NCBI GenBank assembly: GCA_003566875.1 | Contig: PXBQ01000192.1 | Coordinates: 1 to 26,628, forward strand | From: Spirochaetaceae bacterium | Lineage (GTDB): Bacteria; Spirochaetota; Spirochaetia; DSM-27196; PXBQ01 | Direction: 5' to 3' | Length of the DNA stretch: 26,628 nucleotides | Notes under the pieces: model-generated | What the model was told of the DNA's origin: nothing | What the model saw: only the letters and a program-made list of their open reading frames with translations | The model's database searches: none | In this document: piece by piece, positions 932 through 26,628 of the stretch | Layout of the letters: the number at the start of each line of letters is the position of its first letter | Numbering within the stretch: position 1 is the first letter of the stretch | Position numbers and translations under genes: made by a program

Positions 932-2407
932 ATGAATGTACGTGTACGGTACGCGCCGTCGCCGACGGGGCTGCAACACATCGGTAGCGTGAGGACCGCC
1001 CTTTTTAACTATCTCTACGCGCGCGCGACGGGCGGCACGTTTGTCTTGCGTATCGAAGATACCGACCGTGAACGGTTTTCTCCCGATGCTCTCGACGATA
1101 TTTACGACACGTTTCGTTGGTTGGGGGTATCGTGGGACGAAGGGCCCGATGTCGGAGGGCCGTACGGGCCGTACTTCCAGTCGCAACGCGCCGATCTTTA
1201 CCGGGCCCACGCCGAGAGTCTGCTTAGCTCGGGCCACGCGTATCGTTGTTACTGCACGGCCGAACGACTCGCCGACCTGCGCGAACAGCAGGCGCAAAAA
1301 AAAGGCGAACAAGGGTACGACCGAAGGTGTCGCACGCTCTCGGACGACGAGAGAACACGCTTAGAAAATTCCGGGGCGCCGTCGGTAATCCGGTTCCGTG
1401 TTCCGCTCGAAGGGAGCTCCGTATTCGAGGACACGATTCTCGGAGCGGTGAAACGGAAGAACCGCGACATTAACCCCGACCCCGTGCTTCTGAAGAGCGA
1501 CGGTTTTCCGACGTACCACTTGGCGAACGTCGTCGACGACCACCTCATGGAGATCACACACATCCTACGCGCGCAGGAGTGGGTTCCTTCGGCCTCGCTG
1601 CACGTTCTGTTGTACGAGGCATTCGGTTGGTCGCCGCCGGTATTCTGCCATTTGCCGATGGTTATGGGCAAGGACGGCAAGAAACTCTCGAAGCGTCACG
1701 GTTCGACGAGTGTCGTTGATTTCAGAACAGCCGGATATCTTAGCGACGCGGTAGTGAACTACATCGCGCTTCTGGGATGGGCGTTCGATGACAAGACCGA
1801 GTTTTTTACGCGTGAGGAGCTCGAGACGAAATTTTCGATCGAGAGACTGAACAAATCGCCGGCGGTTTTTGATTACAAGAAACTCGAGTGGTTCAACGGC
1901 GCGTACATCAGGGCGCTGAGCGACACGGAGTTGGTAGACGCGATGATTCCGTTTCTTGAGATCGCGGGACTCGTCACAAATCCTCCGAGCGCCGAGCACC
2001 GTGAGGTTCTTGACGGCGTTGCGCCGCTCGTGAAGGAAAGATTGAAGCTCCTGTCCGATGCGCCCGAGGCGCTGCGGTTTCTCCTGAGCGAGATCGATCC
2101 GCCGAGTCTCGAAGATCTTGTCCCGAAGAAAGCCGGGCCGAAAGACGCGCTCGTAGCGCTGCAGGAAGCCGAGAAACTGCTCGACGGATTCTTCGATCGA
2201 ACCGACGAACAGAACGAGGAAAGGTTCCGCGAAGCATCCGAAAGACTCGAGATGAAACTCGGCCATCTCCTGATGCCGGTTAGAGCCGCGGTGACGGGAA
2301 GCTCCGTCTCCCCGCCGCTTTTCGGTTCGATCCGACTGCTCGGTGAAGCCAAAACGCGTGCCCGAATCTCCGAGGCGATCGACCGGCTCAAGGAAGCGAC
2401 CGAGTAA
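932..2407 (+). CDS. gltX: Glutamate--tRNA ligase
   Basis: VRVRYAPSPTG start, HIGS (HIGH), LRIEDTD, CYC zinc motif, PTYHLANVVDDH, KLSKR (KMSKS). Start moved from the track's 875 to ATG 932 because AGGAGG lies at 921-926. Confidence 0.97.
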   Translation: MNVRVRYAPSPTGLQHIGSVRTALFNYLYARATGGTFVLRIEDTDRERFSPDALDDIYDTFRWLGVSWDEGPDVGGPYGPYFQSQRADLYRAHAESLLSSGHAYRCYCTAERLADLREQQAQKKGEQGYDRRCRTLSDDERTRLENSGAPSVIRFRVPLEGSSVFEDTILGAVKRKNRDINPDPVLLKSDGFPTYHLANVVDDHLMEITHILRAQEWVPSASLHVLLYEAFGWSPPVFCHLPMVMGKDGKKLSKRHGSTSVVDFRTAGYLSDAVVNYIALLGWAFDDKTEFFTREELETKFSIERLNKSPAVFDYKKLEWFNGAYIRALSDTELVDAMIPFLEIAGLVTNPPSAEHREVLDGVAPLVKERLKLLSDAPEALRFLLSEIDPPSLEDLVPKKAGPKDALVALQEAEKLLDGFFDRTDEQNEERFREASERLEMKLGHLLMPVRAAVTGSSVSPPLFGSIRLLGEAKTRARISEAIDRLKEATE

Positions 2408-22366: not shown

Positions 22367-22387
22367 AGCATTTTGGGAGTGTGTATC

Positions 22388-23404
22388 GTGCCGAAACCTA
22401 TGACGTACAAGGCCAACTCTGTAATTTACTTTCAGGGCGACGTCAGCGATCGTATCTACATTCTCAAGTCCGGGCGGGTCAGCTTGACGTCAAACGACAT
22501 CGAGACCGGGCAGGAAATCCACGACTACATTCAAACGGGTGAGTTTTTTGGGGTCAAGTCTGCGCTCGGTAGATATCCACGGGAAGAGAGCGCTGCGGTT
22601 CTCTCGGATGCTCACGTGATCATGTTCACGGTTCCTGAGTTTGAGCAGGTCGTTTCCGCGAATACGCGTATCATCATGAAGATGCTCAAGGTTTTTTCGA
22701 ATCAACTCCGGAAAATGCACGCCAAGGTTCAAGACCTCTTGGCGTCCGACTCACAAAACGACCCCGAAGAGGGCCTGTTCCGGATTGGTGAGTACTATCT
22801 GCGAAAAAAACAGTACTCGAAAGCCCTATACGCGTTTCAACGATACCTCACGTACTATCCTTCGGGAAAATTCCACGTGAAGGCAAACTCCCACGCGTTG
22901 ACGGCTGAAAACTATGCGCAGCAGTATGGGGTCGGCAAGGGCCCGGGTGTTCCCGGATTGACGACGGGAGACGCTCCTCAATCGACGACACAATCAAAAC
23001 CCGAGGAAGGGAGGTCGTTGTCGGATGTAGCCAAAAGGTTCTACGACGCCGTGAGTCTTTTCAGTCGGCAGGAGTATACCGATTCGCTCAAGGCGTTCAA
23101 GCAGATAGCGGCATCGGGTGGAGACGAGGAGTATACGGTCAAGTCGTTGTTCGAAATCGGCAGATGTCTCCACGCTTTGAAACAGTACGGGCCGTGTATC
23201 AAACACTTCACGGGGATGATTCAGAAGTATCCGAAAATGCCGAGCCTCCCGGATGCGTTGTACTACGTCGGGCAATCGTACCTCGAGCAGGGCGACGCTA
23301 CGCGCGCGTCAGGGTTCTTCAACAAAATCATCTCGATGCCGGGAATCGACGACGGGCTCAAAAGAAAAGTCAACAAGGCGATGAAAGCGGTCGAGGAGAC
23401 GTGA
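22388..23404 (+). CDS. Cyclic-nucleotide-binding-domain protein with C-terminal TPRs (cytoplasmic)
   Basis: cNMP fold (VIYFQGD..DRIYILKSGRV, GEFFGVKSALGRYPREESA); CpoB/BamD-like TPRs (FQRYLTYYPSG, KYPKMPSLPDALYYVGQSY); no signal peptide. Start set at GTG 22388 from the RBS. Confidence 0.88.
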   Translation: MPKPMTYKANSVIYFQGDVSDRIYILKSGRVSLTSNDIETGQEIHDYIQTGEFFGVKSALGRYPREESAAVLSDAHVIMFTVPEFEQVVSANTRIIMKMLKVFSNQLRKMHAKVQDLLASDSQNDPEEGLFRIGEYYLRKKQYSKALYAFQRYLTYYPSGKFHVKANSHALTAENYAQQYGVGKGPGVPGLTTGDAPQSTTQSKPEEGRSLSDVAKRFYDAVSLFSRQEYTDSLKAFKQIAASGGDEEYTVKSLFEIGRCLHALKQYGPCIKHFTGMIQKYPKMPSLPDALYYVGQSYLEQGDATRASGFFNKIISMPGIDDGLKRKVNKAMKAVEET

Positions 23405-23405
23405 C

Positions 23406-24044
23406 ATGGATCTCAGCAACCCTGCGTTCGAGCGCTTCGCGGTAACGTTCCAGCCGGGCGACATCATCTTCTGCGAACACGAACCCGGAGACTCGTTTTA
23501 CCTGATTCAGGCCGGTCGCGTGCAGATCTCGCGAATCATGGCCGACATCGAGAAGACGATCGACATCCTTCAGCCCGGAGAGATTTTCGGCGAGATGGCC
23601 ATTCTCGAAGAAGCTCCACGATCGGCGAACGCGATCGCGCTCGACCCGATGAAGGCGCTCGAGTTCAACCGCGCCAATTTTGAGATTTTGATGCGCGGAA
23701 ATCCACAGATCGCGTTAAAACTGCTTAAGTTATTTACAAAGCGCATCTACGATCAACGCCGCCGCTTCATGATCTTGACTCTCGACGATGTGCAGGCGAA
23801 AGTCGCCGACGTTTTCTTGATGCTCGCCGAAGGCGAGGGGACAAACAACCAGGAGTCGAACGAACGCACTTTTCGCACCTCGGTCGAAGACGTCGCGCAC
23901 TGGGCGGGTATATCGCCCGAGAAGAGCCGCGAAGTCCTGAGCCACTTCGCCTCTCAACGCCGGATCGAGATCTACCAGGACCGCGTCGTCGTCCGGAACA
24001 TCAACGACCTCATCCGTTTTGTGAACTCCCGCCGCCGGCAGTAA
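23406..24044 (+). CDS. Crp/Fnr family transcriptional regulator
   Basis: IFCEHEPGDSFYLIQAGRV, canonical cassette FGEMAILEEAPRSA, C-helix, HTH SVEDVAHWAGISPEKSREVL; 1 nt after the upstream stop. Confidence 0.9.
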   Translation: MDLSNPAFERFAVTFQPGDIIFCEHEPGDSFYLIQAGRVQISRIMADIEKTIDILQPGEIFGEMAILEEAPRSANAIALDPMKALEFNRANFEILMRGNPQIALKLLKLFTKRIYDQRRRFMILTLDDVQAKVADVFLMLAEGEGTNNQESNERTFRTSVEDVAHWAGISPEKSREVLSHFASQRRIEIYQDRVVVRNINDLIRFVNSRRRQ

Positions 24045-24124: not shown

Positions 24125-24196
24125 AGCCAGAACGCGGATTCGAACCGCGGACCTGCTCATTACGAGTGAGCTGCTCTACCACTGAGCTATCCTGGC
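24125..24196 (-). tRNA. tRNA-Thr (anticodon CGT), CCA not encoded
   Basis: GCCAGGA TA GCTC AGTGGTA GAGC A GCTCA CT-CGT-AA TGAGC AGGTC CGCGG TTCGAAT CCGCG TTCTGGC T; all four stems pair. Confidence 0.97.
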
Positions 24197-24215
24197 GATT
24201 TTCTTACGAGGCCGG

Positions 24216-24244
24216 AGTATAGATCATATCCCGAAAAATGGAAA
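24216..24244 (-). promoter_or_regulatory. Sigma70 promoter for tRNA-Thr
   Basis: TTTCCA(24244-24239)-N17-TATACT(24221-24216), 20 nt upstream of the tRNA. Confidence 0.6.
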
Positions 24245-24251
24245 TACCCTC

Positions 24252-24279
24252 TCACGAGAATCCGTCGGTTCTCCGATAA
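24252..24279 (+). promoter_or_regulatory. Putative sigma28 (FliA) promoter for flgF-flgG-flgJ
   Basis: TCAC(24252-24255)-N16-TCCGATAA(24272-24279) against the consensus TAAA-N15/16-GCCGATAA; -10 matches 7/8, -35 is weak. Confidence 0.4.
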
Positions 24280-24306
24280 ATAAGTAAGTAGTGTGGGGAG
24301 GGAACC

Positions 24307-25170
24307 GTGGTTCGGGGAATGTACACAGCTGCAAGCGGCATGACCGCGCAGCAACACCGGCTTGACGCGTTGACGAACAACCTGGCCAACGTCGACACGA
24401 CCGGTTTCAAACGCGACCAGGCCGTGTATAAGGCTTTTCCGGAGCTTCTGCTTCGCAGGATGAGCGACGACGGCGTCCTGCGCATTCCGTATCGAGCGCA
24501 GATGCCGTGGGGTTCGATCGACAAGGCACCGGTGGTCGGCCGCCTTGGAACGGGTGTGGAACTCAACGAGATATACACGATTTTCGAGCAAGGCAGCTTC
24601 AAGGAGTCCGGTAACCCGTTCGACCTCGCTCTCGAGGGGCGAGGTTTTTTCGTCGTCGAGACACCGAACGGAGAAAGATTGACGCGTAACGGGAGTTTCC
24701 ACGTCGACCCGTCCGGATACCTTGTGACGAAAGACGGTTTCCCGGTTCTCGGCGAAGAAGGGCCGATTCGTGTGACGATGAACAACTTCGTCGTCGACGA
24801 GGACGGACGCGTTTTTGCGAACGATGTATACCGAGACCCGGACCGACTGGTTTCGATGATCGAGAACCAATGGGAAGAGACGATCGAACTCGACCGGCTT
24901 CGGTTGGTCGAAGTGCCGAACGATCGGTATCTCGAGAAACAAGGTTCGAGCCTGTGGCGGACCACGTGGGACTCGGGCGACGCGGAGATCGCCGCAGAGG
25001 GCTTTCGACCCCGCGTTCATCAGGGTTTTCTCGAGACCGCAAACGTGAATCCGGTCACCGAAATGGTGGAGATGATCGAGGTGAACCGGGCGTACGAAGC
25101 GAATCAGAAGGTTATTCAAACGCAGGATGCGACGACCGGCAAGTTGATCAACGAAGTCTTGCGAATGTAG
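24307..25170 (+). CDS. flgF: Flagellar rod protein FlgF/FlhO-type (hook-basal body protein)
   Basis: MVRGMYTAASGM, NNLANVDTTGFKRD, DLALEGRGFF, TRNGSF, GFLETANVNPVTEMVEMI; first of a tandem rod-gene pair. Confidence 0.87.
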   Translation: MVRGMYTAASGMTAQQHRLDALTNNLANVDTTGFKRDQAVYKAFPELLLRRMSDDGVLRIPYRAQMPWGSIDKAPVVGRLGTGVELNEIYTIFEQGSFKESGNPFDLALEGRGFFVVETPNGERLTRNGSFHVDPSGYLVTKDGFPVLGEEGPIRVTMNNFVVDEDGRVFANDVYRDPDRLVSMIENQWEETIELDRLRLVEVPNDRYLEKQGSSLWRTTWDSGDAEIAAEGFRPRVHQGFLETANVNPVTEMVEMIEVNRAYEANQKVIQTQDATTGKLINEVLRM

Positions 25171-25182
25171 TGAGGTAGAAAA

Positions 25183-25977
25183 ATGGTACGTTCCCTTTGG
25201 ACCGCAGCGGCCGGCATGAATGGACAGCAGTTCAATATCGACACGATCGCGAATAATCTCTCTAACGTGAACACGACCGGTTTCAAGAAAAACCGACCCG
25301 ATTTTGAGGATCTCTTGTACCAGACCGTCCGGACCGCCGGCACCCCGGCGACCGAGAACACCTTGGTTCCGGTCGGAGAACAGTTTGGTCACGGTGTTCG
25401 CGTCGCGGCGACGCAGAAGATTTTCACGCAAGGATCGCTTCAAAACACCGATGTCGTCAGCGACATCGCGATCGAGGGCGAAGGATTCTTTCGCGTCTTG
25501 ACGTACGACGGCTCGTTTGCGTACACACGCGACGGTGCGTTCAAGATCGACTCGAATGGTCAGTTCGTCACGTCGAAAGGGTATCGTGTTGTCCCGGATA
25601 TCATTATGCCCGAGGGCTTCATACGCGAATCGATCGCGATCTCGGCCGACGGGCGCGTCTCGGTGAACCTTCCGGGGATCGACGATCCGATCGACGTCGC
25701 TCAAATCGAAGTCTACCGATTCGTGAACCCGGCAGGTTTGACCGCCGTCGGTGAGAACCTCTTCAAGGTCACGTCTGCGTCGGGCGATCCGATCGCCGGG
25801 CAACCGGGGTTCGACGGGATGGGCCGGCTTCTGCACAAATTTATCGAAATGAGCAATGTTGAAGCGGTAAACGAGATGGTAAACATGATTGTCGCGCAAA
25901 GAGCGTACGAGATGAGTTCAAAGGCGATTCAGACCTCGGACACGATGCTGGGAATCGCGGCAAATCTCAAACGATAA
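25183..25977 (+). CDS. flgG: Flagellar distal rod protein FlgG
   Basis: MVRSLWTAAAGM, IANNLSNVNTTGFKKNR..FEDLLYQ, TRDGAFKIDSNGQ, YRFVNPAGL, EMSNVEAVNEMVNMIVAQRAYE. Confidence 0.96.
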   Translation: MVRSLWTAAAGMNGQQFNIDTIANNLSNVNTTGFKKNRPDFEDLLYQTVRTAGTPATENTLVPVGEQFGHGVRVAATQKIFTQGSLQNTDVVSDIAIEGEGFFRVLTYDGSFAYTRDGAFKIDSNGQFVTSKGYRVVPDIIMPEGFIRESIAISADGRVSVNLPGIDDPIDVAQIEVYRFVNPAGLTAVGENLFKVTSASGDPIAGQPGFDGMGRLLHKFIEMSNVEAVNEMVNMIVAQRAYEMSSKAIQTSDTMLGIAANLKR

Positions 25978-26002
25978 AGCCCGTTCAACGAAGGAATAAG
26001 GC

Positions 26003-26344
26003 ATGATCGACGCAGTATTTGATCGTCACACTGTCGCGAACGCGCGGACGCCTGAAATGCCGCGCGTCCCGGTCAACGCCGATGAGGCGCGGCTGCGAGA
26101 AGTCACGCGCGATTTTGAGGCGATTTTTGTGAAAACGATGCTTGATTCGATGCGAAACACATTGAACCGAGAGTCACGCATGTTCGACGGCGGCATGGCC
26201 GAAGAGTTCTTTGAGGACATGCTTTATGAACAGTACGCAAAGAGAATGACCGAGACCGCGCGTCTCGGAATCGCCGATCTTTTGTATCAGCAGCTCTCGC
26301 CACAGGTTTCGACCGTTCCCGCGCGTGACGCGTATCGTGAATAA
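26003..26344 (+). CDS. flgJ: Single-domain FlgJ (rod-binding/rod cap protein, no muramidase domain)
   Basis: LREVTRDFEAIFVKTMLDSMR and FEDMLYEQYA...LGIADLLYQQL (Rod-binding domain); AAGG RBS. Confidence 0.85.
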   Translation: MIDAVFDRHTVANARTPEMPRVPVNADEARLREVTRDFEAIFVKTMLDSMRNTLNRESRMFDGGMAEEFFEDMLYEQYAKRMTETARLGIADLLYQQLSPQVSTVPARDAYRE

Positions 26345-26468
26345 CCAAAACGCCGGTACCGTATGATAAAGTGAACAGTTTTAGTGATTCTTTTCGCTCG
26401 GCCTGGCGCGGTTTTTTTAAATCTATTCCACGTAGAAAGTTATATGTTGTGCTTGTTGTTTGTATCAT

Positions 26469-26484
26469 TGGCACGCTATTTGCA
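26469..26484 (+). promoter_or_regulatory. Sigma54 (RpoN) -24/-12 promoter
   Basis: TGGCACG-CTAT-TTGCA is an exact match to TGGCACG-N4-TTGCW. The predicted +1 near 26495 is followed by RBS AGGAG (26496-26500) and ATG 26507. Confidence 0.85.
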
Positions 26485-26506
26485 TCATTAATGCCAGGAG
26501 CACGGC

Positions 26507-26628
26507 ATGGAAAAGAAGAATAGTTCTAAAACCGATAACGAATCGCTGAAAGCATACTTCGAAGAAATAAAAAAAACAACGCTCCTGACTTTTGAAGAGG
26601 AGCTGGACCTCTCTAAAAGGATCGAAAA
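26507..26628 (+). CDS. RNA polymerase sigma70-family factor, RpoS-like (no region 1.1); runs off the window end
   Basis: Hand translation MEKKNSSKTDNESLKAYFEEIKKTTLLTFEEELDLSKRIE matches region 1.2 (L..Y..EI...LLT.EEE..L..RI) starting at about residue 11; strong RBS. Too short for the ORF track. Confidence 0.8.
   Translation, partial: MEKKNSSKTDNESLKAYFEEIKKTTLLTFEEELDLSKRIE

Follow-up and report, generated by a model that had tools for sequence, protein, structure and literature searches.

The flgJ locus and its sigma-54 box

The stretch of DNA analysed here (the window) is a whole contig of 26,628 bp, C204, belonging to a metagenome-assembled genome (MAG) of 59.8% GC that is 80% complete and distributed over 567 contigs. 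Towards the end of the window, the flagellar rod genes flgF and flgG are followed by a short flgJ-like gene and then by a sigma factor gene, inside which the contig ends (Table 1). A sequence-only reading of this DNA had proposed a perfect sigma-54 promoter, followed by AGGAG and an open reading frame (ORF) that begins 162 nt after flgJ, and all these features were recovered. The box, TGGCACGCTATTTGCA, agrees exactly with the consensus and is the sole match in the window, its GG (26470-26471) and GC (26482-26483) doublets lying 10 nt apart within the pattern TGGCAC-N5-TTGCW. The stop codon of flgJ ends at 26344 and the ATG of the sigma factor gene is at 26507, which gives the spacer of 162 nt and places the box approximately 22 nt before the start codon. 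None of 100 dinucleotide-preserving shuffles of the window contained the box pattern with zero mismatches, and when up to one mismatch was permitted the shuffles yielded 0.28 matches on average. The strict pattern is found seven times in the 3.0-Mb genome: twice at the RpoS-type locus described here (C204 and the overlapping contig C425), once before a sister sigma factor gene on contig C56, three times beside activator genes and once on contig C306. The box is identical in C425 and in G001, a genome of the same genus.

Scans of positions 25900-26628 detected, on the + strand, neither an intrinsic terminator between flgJ and the box nor a sigma-70 promoter in the spacer between flgJ and the sigma factor gene. 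Since no terminator separates flgJ from the box, transcripts running on from the flagellar operon could contribute to the expression of the sigma factor gene. The folding of the spacer gave a z-score of 0.03, and a repeat search of positions 26200-26520 returned no notable direct or inverted repeats.

Two genes for cyclic-nucleotide-binding proteins are located just upstream of flgF (22373-24044, + strand), one product (343 aa) carrying TPR repeats and the other (212 aa) being a Crp-like regulator equipped with an HTH domain; the pair may be linked to flagellar or sigma factor control. We also observed an open frame of 570 aa antisense over flgF and flgG (24187-25899, - strand), which most likely results from the high GC content and does not represent a gene.

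Table 1. Features of the flgJ-sigma factor locus and of two further sigma-54 promoters of the same genome (positions refer to the window unless a contig is named).
Feature	Position	Strand	Basis or remark
flgF, flagellar rod	24307..25170	+	Pfam Flg_bb_rod/LlgE_F_G_D1/Flg_bbr_C; NCBIfam flgF 193 bits, above cutoff
flgG, distal rod	25183..25977	+	NCBIfam PRK12816 FlgG 461.7 bits, above cutoff
flgJ-like gene (113 aa) whose sole domain is rod-binding, the muramidase domain being absent	26003..26344	+	Pfam Rod-binding, E 7.8e-16
Putative upstream activator site GTATGATAAAGTGAACAG, palindrome of GTAT-N8-ATAC type	26361..26378	+	Motif derived by expectation-maximisation, 18.6 bits
Sigma-54 (-24/-12) box	26469..26484	+	Exact consensus; conserved in orthologous loci
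Predicted transcription start	26495	+	Expected from the geometry of sigma-54 promoters, 12 nt past the doublet's final C (GC)
Shine-Dalgarno sequence AGGAG	26496..26500	+	6 nt before ATG; read from the sequence
RpoS-type sigma factor gene, first 40 codons	26507..26628	+	Remainder on contig C425 (L002:329-1170)
Sigma-54-like box TGGTAC...TTGCA before membrane protein gene	C402 238	-	Paired with GTAT-type site at 332-349
Sister sigma factor gene, 291 aa, regions 1.2-4	C56 (L147), ORF 1260-2132, box 1223-1238		Exact sigma-54 box

Completion and identity of the sigma factor

The first 450 nt of contig C425 overlap window positions 26179-26628 with 97% identity and 14 substitutions; C425 is a strain variant of C204, and the bin thus mixes at least two strains. 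C425 carries sigma regions 2, 3 and 4, with a divergent polysaccharide deacetylase gene 15 nt further on, and the same-genus genome G001 contains an intact ORF of 280 aa with 98% identity. Near-identical DNA was found in metagenomes from soda lakes, salt lakes and alkali sediments.

For the 40 codons present in the window, Pfam returned Sigma70_r1_2 (E 9.3e-10), as expected from the earlier suggestion that the ORF opens with sigma region 1.2 and does not encode RpoD. The full protein has 280 aa and the region order 1.2-2-3-4, starting at region 1.2 and lacking region 1.1, and it is a group-2-like sigma factor. An identity as RpoD (group 1) was rejected on the grounds of this length and starting point, together with the presence of a separate RpoD, a frame of 579 aa, on contig C258.

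In a maximum likelihood tree the protein forms a clade with the RpoS proteins of three Borrelia-like genomes (SH-aLRT 96, rising to 99.8 when one very long branch is left out). The sigma factor encoded on C56 represents the sister clade of this RpoS type (joint support 90-95); placing Borrelia RpoS with the C56 type instead is worse by 14.9 log-likelihood units, an arrangement that the AU test does not reject (p 0.119). A P[HY]RKE motif in region 3.0 is common to the protein and to Borrelia-like RpoS, the corresponding residues being PVHMIE in RpoD and PIHIVK in Escherichia coli RpoS. E. coli RpoS itself groups with a Nitrospirota sigma factor (support 95-97), outside the spirochaete clade. 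The tree, the flgJ and deacetylase synteny (see below) and the P[HY]RKE motif thus argue that the protein belongs with Borrelia RpoS and not with E. coli RpoS; judged by these comparisons, it is an orthologue of Borrelia RpoS, and hence "RpoS" in the Borrelia sense.

The "RpoS-like" label of the sequence-only reading does not extend to orthology with the proteobacterial protein. Proteobacterial RpoS (sigma-38, TIGR02394) has the same build of regions 1.2-2-3-4, region 1.1 and the large RpoD insertion both being absent, and its models are among the best NCBIfam matches. However, the scores fall far under the family cutoffs (TIGR02394, 218.9 bits against 378.7; PRK05657, 210 against 394, over the C-terminal 239 aa), the two proteins belong to separate clades, Lys173 of E. 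coli RpoS, which reads -13C, aligns to Asp, and the C-terminal extension is missing here, so that this identity was rejected. This outcome agrees with doubts that PMC6719511 quotes from Chiang and Schellhorn and from Hengge.

Conservation of the box and of gene order

The box is kept at the same spot in essentially all spirochaete orthologues surveyed (more than 100 loci). Within the order, the orthologue is found once per genome in 40 of 40 genomes from 11 families, at 53-98% identity, and is clearly apart from RpoD and from two other paralogues. The -24/-12 box, with zero or one mismatch and at fixed distance, occurs in 29/29 loci of these 11 families for which upstream sequence is available. 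The order flgG-flgJ-sigma-deacetylase is common to the relatives' loci of the order: flgG was seen upstream of the sigma factor gene in 25 of 30 loci, the other loci being cut by a contig end, and the arrangement flgJ, sigma factor, divergent deacetylase is found in the window combined with C425, in 25-28 of the 30 relatives' loci (those extending far enough to be counted) and in three Borrelia-like genomes.

Outside this order the picture is similar. A set of 80 named loci includes 59 from spirochaetes, nearly all of which have the box approximately 40 nt before the start codon; among them are Gracilinema caldarium, Alkalispirochaeta alkalica, Rectinemataceae and Treponema-labelled MAGs. In other families of the phylum, the box precedes the homologue in 17 of 20 cases. 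As negative controls, homologues from Nitrospirota, Verrucomicrobiota and other non-spirochaetes (0/21) lack it, and it was found neither before RpoD genes (0/8) nor before the third sigma paralogue (0/4). Column identity is 80-99% for TTGGCACG and 60-99% for TTGCAT, as against 20-40% for the flanks and for the 4-5 nt that separate the two elements. The box and the upstream site described below are clearly under purifying selection across the phylum, with fixed spacing, including at loci where flgJ is not located upstream.

A Treponema denticola-like genome (G055; L151, 2680372-2681166) carries a very divergent member of the RpoS-type clade, with a branch length of 3.0 and without a sigma-54 box, and the T. 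pallidum-like genome yielded no RpoS-type gene. In the family of the T. denticola-like genome, this gene seems to have entered decay or taken on another role.

A conserved putative activator site upstream of the box, shared with a second gene

An expectation-maximisation motif search of 78 distinct loci, anchored on the box, produced an 18-nt motif of 16.5 bits with the consensus GTATAAAAAAGTATACAG, i.e., GTAT-N8-ATAC. A site of this GTAT type exceeds the 99th percentile of shuffles in 74 of the 78 loci, at a median position of -110 relative to the box (interquartile range -111 to -107), and the DNA between site and box is AT-rich. Such sites are rare, only 16 scoring 14 bits or more in the 3.0-Mb genome. 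In the window, the centre of the putative activator site lies approximately 126 nt before the predicted transcription start. The site was found by comparing loci, and the repeat search of positions 26200-26520 alone did not show it. A distal second copy near -144 occurs in 31/81 loci, and no such copy is recognisable in the window (best score -5.5 bits). GTAT-type sites are absent from the Borrelia-like loci (below 2 bits) and from the sister sigma promoter on C56 (about 2 bits).

One other place in the genome, on contig C402, pairs a GTAT-type site (20.7 bits) with a sigma-54-like box. The gene downstream of this box encodes a polytopic membrane protein of 213 aa and continues on contig C302; its counterpart in G001 is L167:1002-1640 (- strand). 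Pfam and NCBIfam searches of this protein gave no match, loose thresholds included, and an Atlas feature search placed it among diacylglycerol/polyprenol kinase (CdsA/dolichol-kinase-like) proteins (0.96); we take the polyprenol-kinase-like assignment as a lead rather than proof. A box with at most two mismatches precedes the 213-aa gene in 25 of 29 relatives' loci, and all 25 have a GTAT-type site at -99 to -117. The pair of site and box is also present in G070, a 2.47-Mb genome from another order, and is lacking in the T. denticola-like, T. pallidum-like and Borrelia-like genomes. These observations define the small conserved regulon of an as yet unstudied activator, consisting of a sigma factor and a gene of envelope-lipid type.

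RpoN, the sister sigma factor and candidate activators

RpoN is complete in this genome (459 aa; AID, CBD and DBD domains), and seven full and one partial Sigma54_activat genes accompany it. The contig C460 carries a PAS histidine kinase gene followed by one for a REC-AAA-HTH_8 activator, which is 56% identical over 449 aa to Borrelia-like Rrp2, the next-best activator reaching 41%; on this sequence evidence the two genes are the orthologues of Hk2 and Rrp2. Concerning BosR, which the sequence-only reading had listed with the Borrelia pathway, one Fur-family gene is present. At 25%, the identity of its product to the Borrelia-like protein is low; a BosR role is thus unsupported and orthology is not shown.

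The sister sigma factor shares with the RpoS type the domain build and a preceding sigma-54 box, in addition to their sister-clade relationship. It differs in its upstream elements, which are pairs of another palindrome, GTCA-N3/4-TGAC, and in its linkage to Hk2-Rrp2 where the RpoS type is linked to flgJ; it is also the better conserved of the two (72-84% identity within the order, compared with 53-76% for the RpoS type). Its box was present in all 35 loci examined from the order, as well as in Spirochaeta thermophila-like, T. pallidum-like and T. denticola-like genomes, and in the latter two only the C56-type sigma factor has a box. In two complete genomes of the order the Rrp2-type gene lies approximately 7 kb upstream of the sister sigma factor gene, and in four genomes from other families it is immediately upstream, with the box and GTCA-type sites in between.

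Several orthogroups are resolved in a tree of the activators. The C267 type consists of a REC-AAA-HTH_8 regulator and a HAMP histidine kinase; its genes are situated 4 kb downstream of rpoN and are followed by lexA, and no sigma-54 box adjoins the activator gene (contig C267; L003, L007). This type is present in 14 of 14 sampled box-bearing non-Borrelia genomes tested and missing from the T. denticola-like, Borrelia-like and T. pallidum-like genomes. Two further types were considered for the RpoS-type promoter: the C191 type was excluded, being absent from several site-bearing families, and the C259 type is disfavoured, as it was not found in one site-bearing genome. Additional sigma-54 boxes are located directly downstream of activator genes (C191:4201, C250:5746 and C259:12231, the last on the - strand), two of the three preceding small or periplasmic-looking proteins with signal-peptide-like starts; these are probably local activator-target pairs.

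Which protein would act at the GTAT-type site was judged from gene distribution and linkage in approximately 20 related genomes, whose counts are not independent. Because the sister sigma factor has its own box, a different site and a linkage to Rrp2, the activator of the RpoS-type promoter is more likely of the C267 type than Rrp2, and we regard the C267 regulator as the candidate with a somewhat better than even chance. The main competitor is the Hk2-Rrp2 orthologue pair on C460, which would act here as in Borrelia, GTAT-N8-ATAC then being an ancestral Rrp2 enhancer that Borrelia has lost. In its favour, the C460 activator resembles Borrelia-like Rrp2, combines REC, AAA and HTH_8 domains and has a PAS kinase gene upstream, and in B. 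burgdorferi Rrp2 is proven to activate rpoS (PMC1976401). The distribution of Rrp2 is also compatible with it: an orthologue is present in every sampled genome having a GTAT-type site, and the only clade without Rrp2 is also without a recognisable site. However, the Rrp2-type genes adjoin, or lie approximately 7 kb from, a sigma factor gene whose palindrome is a different one, and in the clade of three families that lacks an Rrp2-type gene it is exactly the C56-like sigma factor that has no box, whereas the RpoS-type gene keeps one. Moreover, the T. denticola-like and T. pallidum-like genomes retain Rrp2, yet have no gene with both a GTAT-type site and a box. We therefore consider Rrp2 unlikely as the activator here; the chance that the activator is neither C267 nor Rrp2, but another protein, is a little smaller again.

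A proposed sigma-54 promoter for an RpoS orthologue

We propose, with a probability of about 0.8, that a functional sigma-54 promoter transcribes the gene for this Borrelia RpoS orthologue with the help of an enhancer-bound NtrC-type activator, the mRNA starting at about 26495. The proposal draws on the box and the upstream site with their conservation and fixed spacing, on the presence of RpoN and of activators, and on the orthology with Borrelia RpoS; RpoN dependence, the start site and the identity of the activator are what we infer from them. RpoN holoenzyme would form a closed complex at the -24/-12 box. From the palindromic site, an enhancer-binding protein of the NtrC type would loop over the AT-rich spacer and spend ATP to open the promoter, so that the mRNA would begin near the predicted position. 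The transcript would contain the gene for the RpoS orthologue and probably also the downstream divergent polysaccharide deacetylase gene, and the newly made sigma factor would redirect core polymerase to its own regulon.

It could be argued that the box is unused and that the sigma factor gene is read only through extension of flgF-flgG-flgJ transcription or from an unrecognised sigma-70 or sigma-28 promoter. The uninterrupted passage from flgJ to the box is compatible with such a reading, and Lybecker and Samuels reportedly described in 2007 a second, longer Borrelia rpoS transcript with its start upstream. Against it, the box and the site are under clear phylum-wide purifying selection at fixed spacing, also where flgJ is not upstream, and the spacer has no sigma-70-like promoter. 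As a weak further point, metatranscriptome contigs cover the sigma factor gene from approximately 26528 onward and do not cover flgJ or the spacer; such contigs cannot show start, strand or expression, and the position where RNA coverage begins is only a weak hint on the transcription start. We regard an unused box as very unlikely.

Even less probable is that the sigma factor gene is a pseudogene and its promoter a relic, a reading suggested by a 1-nt deletion at a run of four A in C425, which introduces a stop after 49 codons, and by the end of C204 at exactly the A-run where C425 lost a base, and opposed by the intact ORF of G001, by the absence of further stops in the downstream part of the gene and by the extra A present at this place in four of four independent assemblies (three DNA runs and one RNA run, from soda- and salt-lake samples), which restores the frame; the frameshift thus arose in assembly, and the gene, of 280 aa, is intact.

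Comparison with known systems

The arrangement resembles NtrC-type promoters such as glnAp2 of enteric bacteria, which likewise combine a -24/-12 box with a palindromic site approximately 100-150 nt upstream and an AT-rich spacer, and for which, as here, a REC-AAA-HTH_8 response regulator is paired with a histidine kinase in the genome. Differently from glnAp2-type promoters, the target is a sigma factor gene and not a metabolic operon. GTAT-N8-ATAC is also not an NtrC site, and the window contains one such site, where 31/81 relatives contain two.

The closest known system is the Rrp2-RpoN-RpoS cascade of B. burgdorferi, in which rpoS corresponds to BB0771. Both systems have an orthologous sigma factor whose gene stands between flgJ and a divergent deacetylase gene, a sigma-54 box within the flgJ-sigma spacer, and RpoN, Hk2 and Rrp2 orthologues in the genome. 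The B. burgdorferi rpoS box is TGGCACAGTTTTTGCA, and the published map matches the Borrelia-like loci (PMC1976401). The distance from box to ATG is approximately 22 nt here and approximately 45 nt in the Borrelia-like loci, and the host is a free-living soda-lake spirochaete of 60% GC. More importantly, the locus described here has a conserved upstream site, common to a second gene, that Borrelia lacks, and its activator is probably not Rrp2. In B. burgdorferi, Rrp2 activates rpoS without an enhancer, no binding site having been found within 238 bp (PMC1976401), and the lack of a GTAT-type site in the Borrelia-like loci fits this enhancer-independent action. The "Borrelia-style" cascade of the sequence-only reading holds for RpoN, the box and the Hk2-Rrp2 orthologues; it does not extend to the upstream site, and the comparison favours a different activator.

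The same reading had placed the origin of both synteny and cascade before Borrelia parasitism. This is very probably correct, as the Borrelia-like genomes have the gene order and the RpoS clade in common with the genomes studied here; furthermore, promoter, gene order and sigma factor are common to free-living spirochaetes across the phylum, and the circuit thus dates from well before parasitism. The sigma-to-sigma circuit looks like an old one in spirochaetes, of which Borrelia has a stripped-down and possibly rewired version. In the Lyme disease agent, the RpoN-to-RpoS cascade acts as the central switch of virulence, and the Borrelia literature treats it as a Borrelia pathway, one paper referring to a novel regulatory network. 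The open full-text papers searched describe the cascade for Borrelia only, and none of them mentions the upstream site in another organism.

How the Borrelia form may have arisen can be formulated tentatively, in a scenario to which we give slightly less than even odds: the Borrelia Rrp2-RpoN-RpoS pathway would be the rewired remnant of an ancestral circuit with two branches. In this ancestor, Hk2-Rrp2 would have driven the sister sigma factor through a GTCA-type enhancer, and a C267-type system would have driven the RpoS-type sigma factor and the polyprenol-kinase-like envelope gene through the GTAT-N8-ATAC enhancer. In Borrelia, the enhancer would then have disappeared together with the second activator and the sister sigma factor, and Rrp2 would have been recruited to rpoS from solution. 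If true, this scenario would explain the long-puzzling enhancer-independent action of Rrp2, and it is testable. Alkalispirochaeta and Gracilinema provide cultivable, non-pathogenic models for dissecting the putative enhancer-dependent ancestral form.
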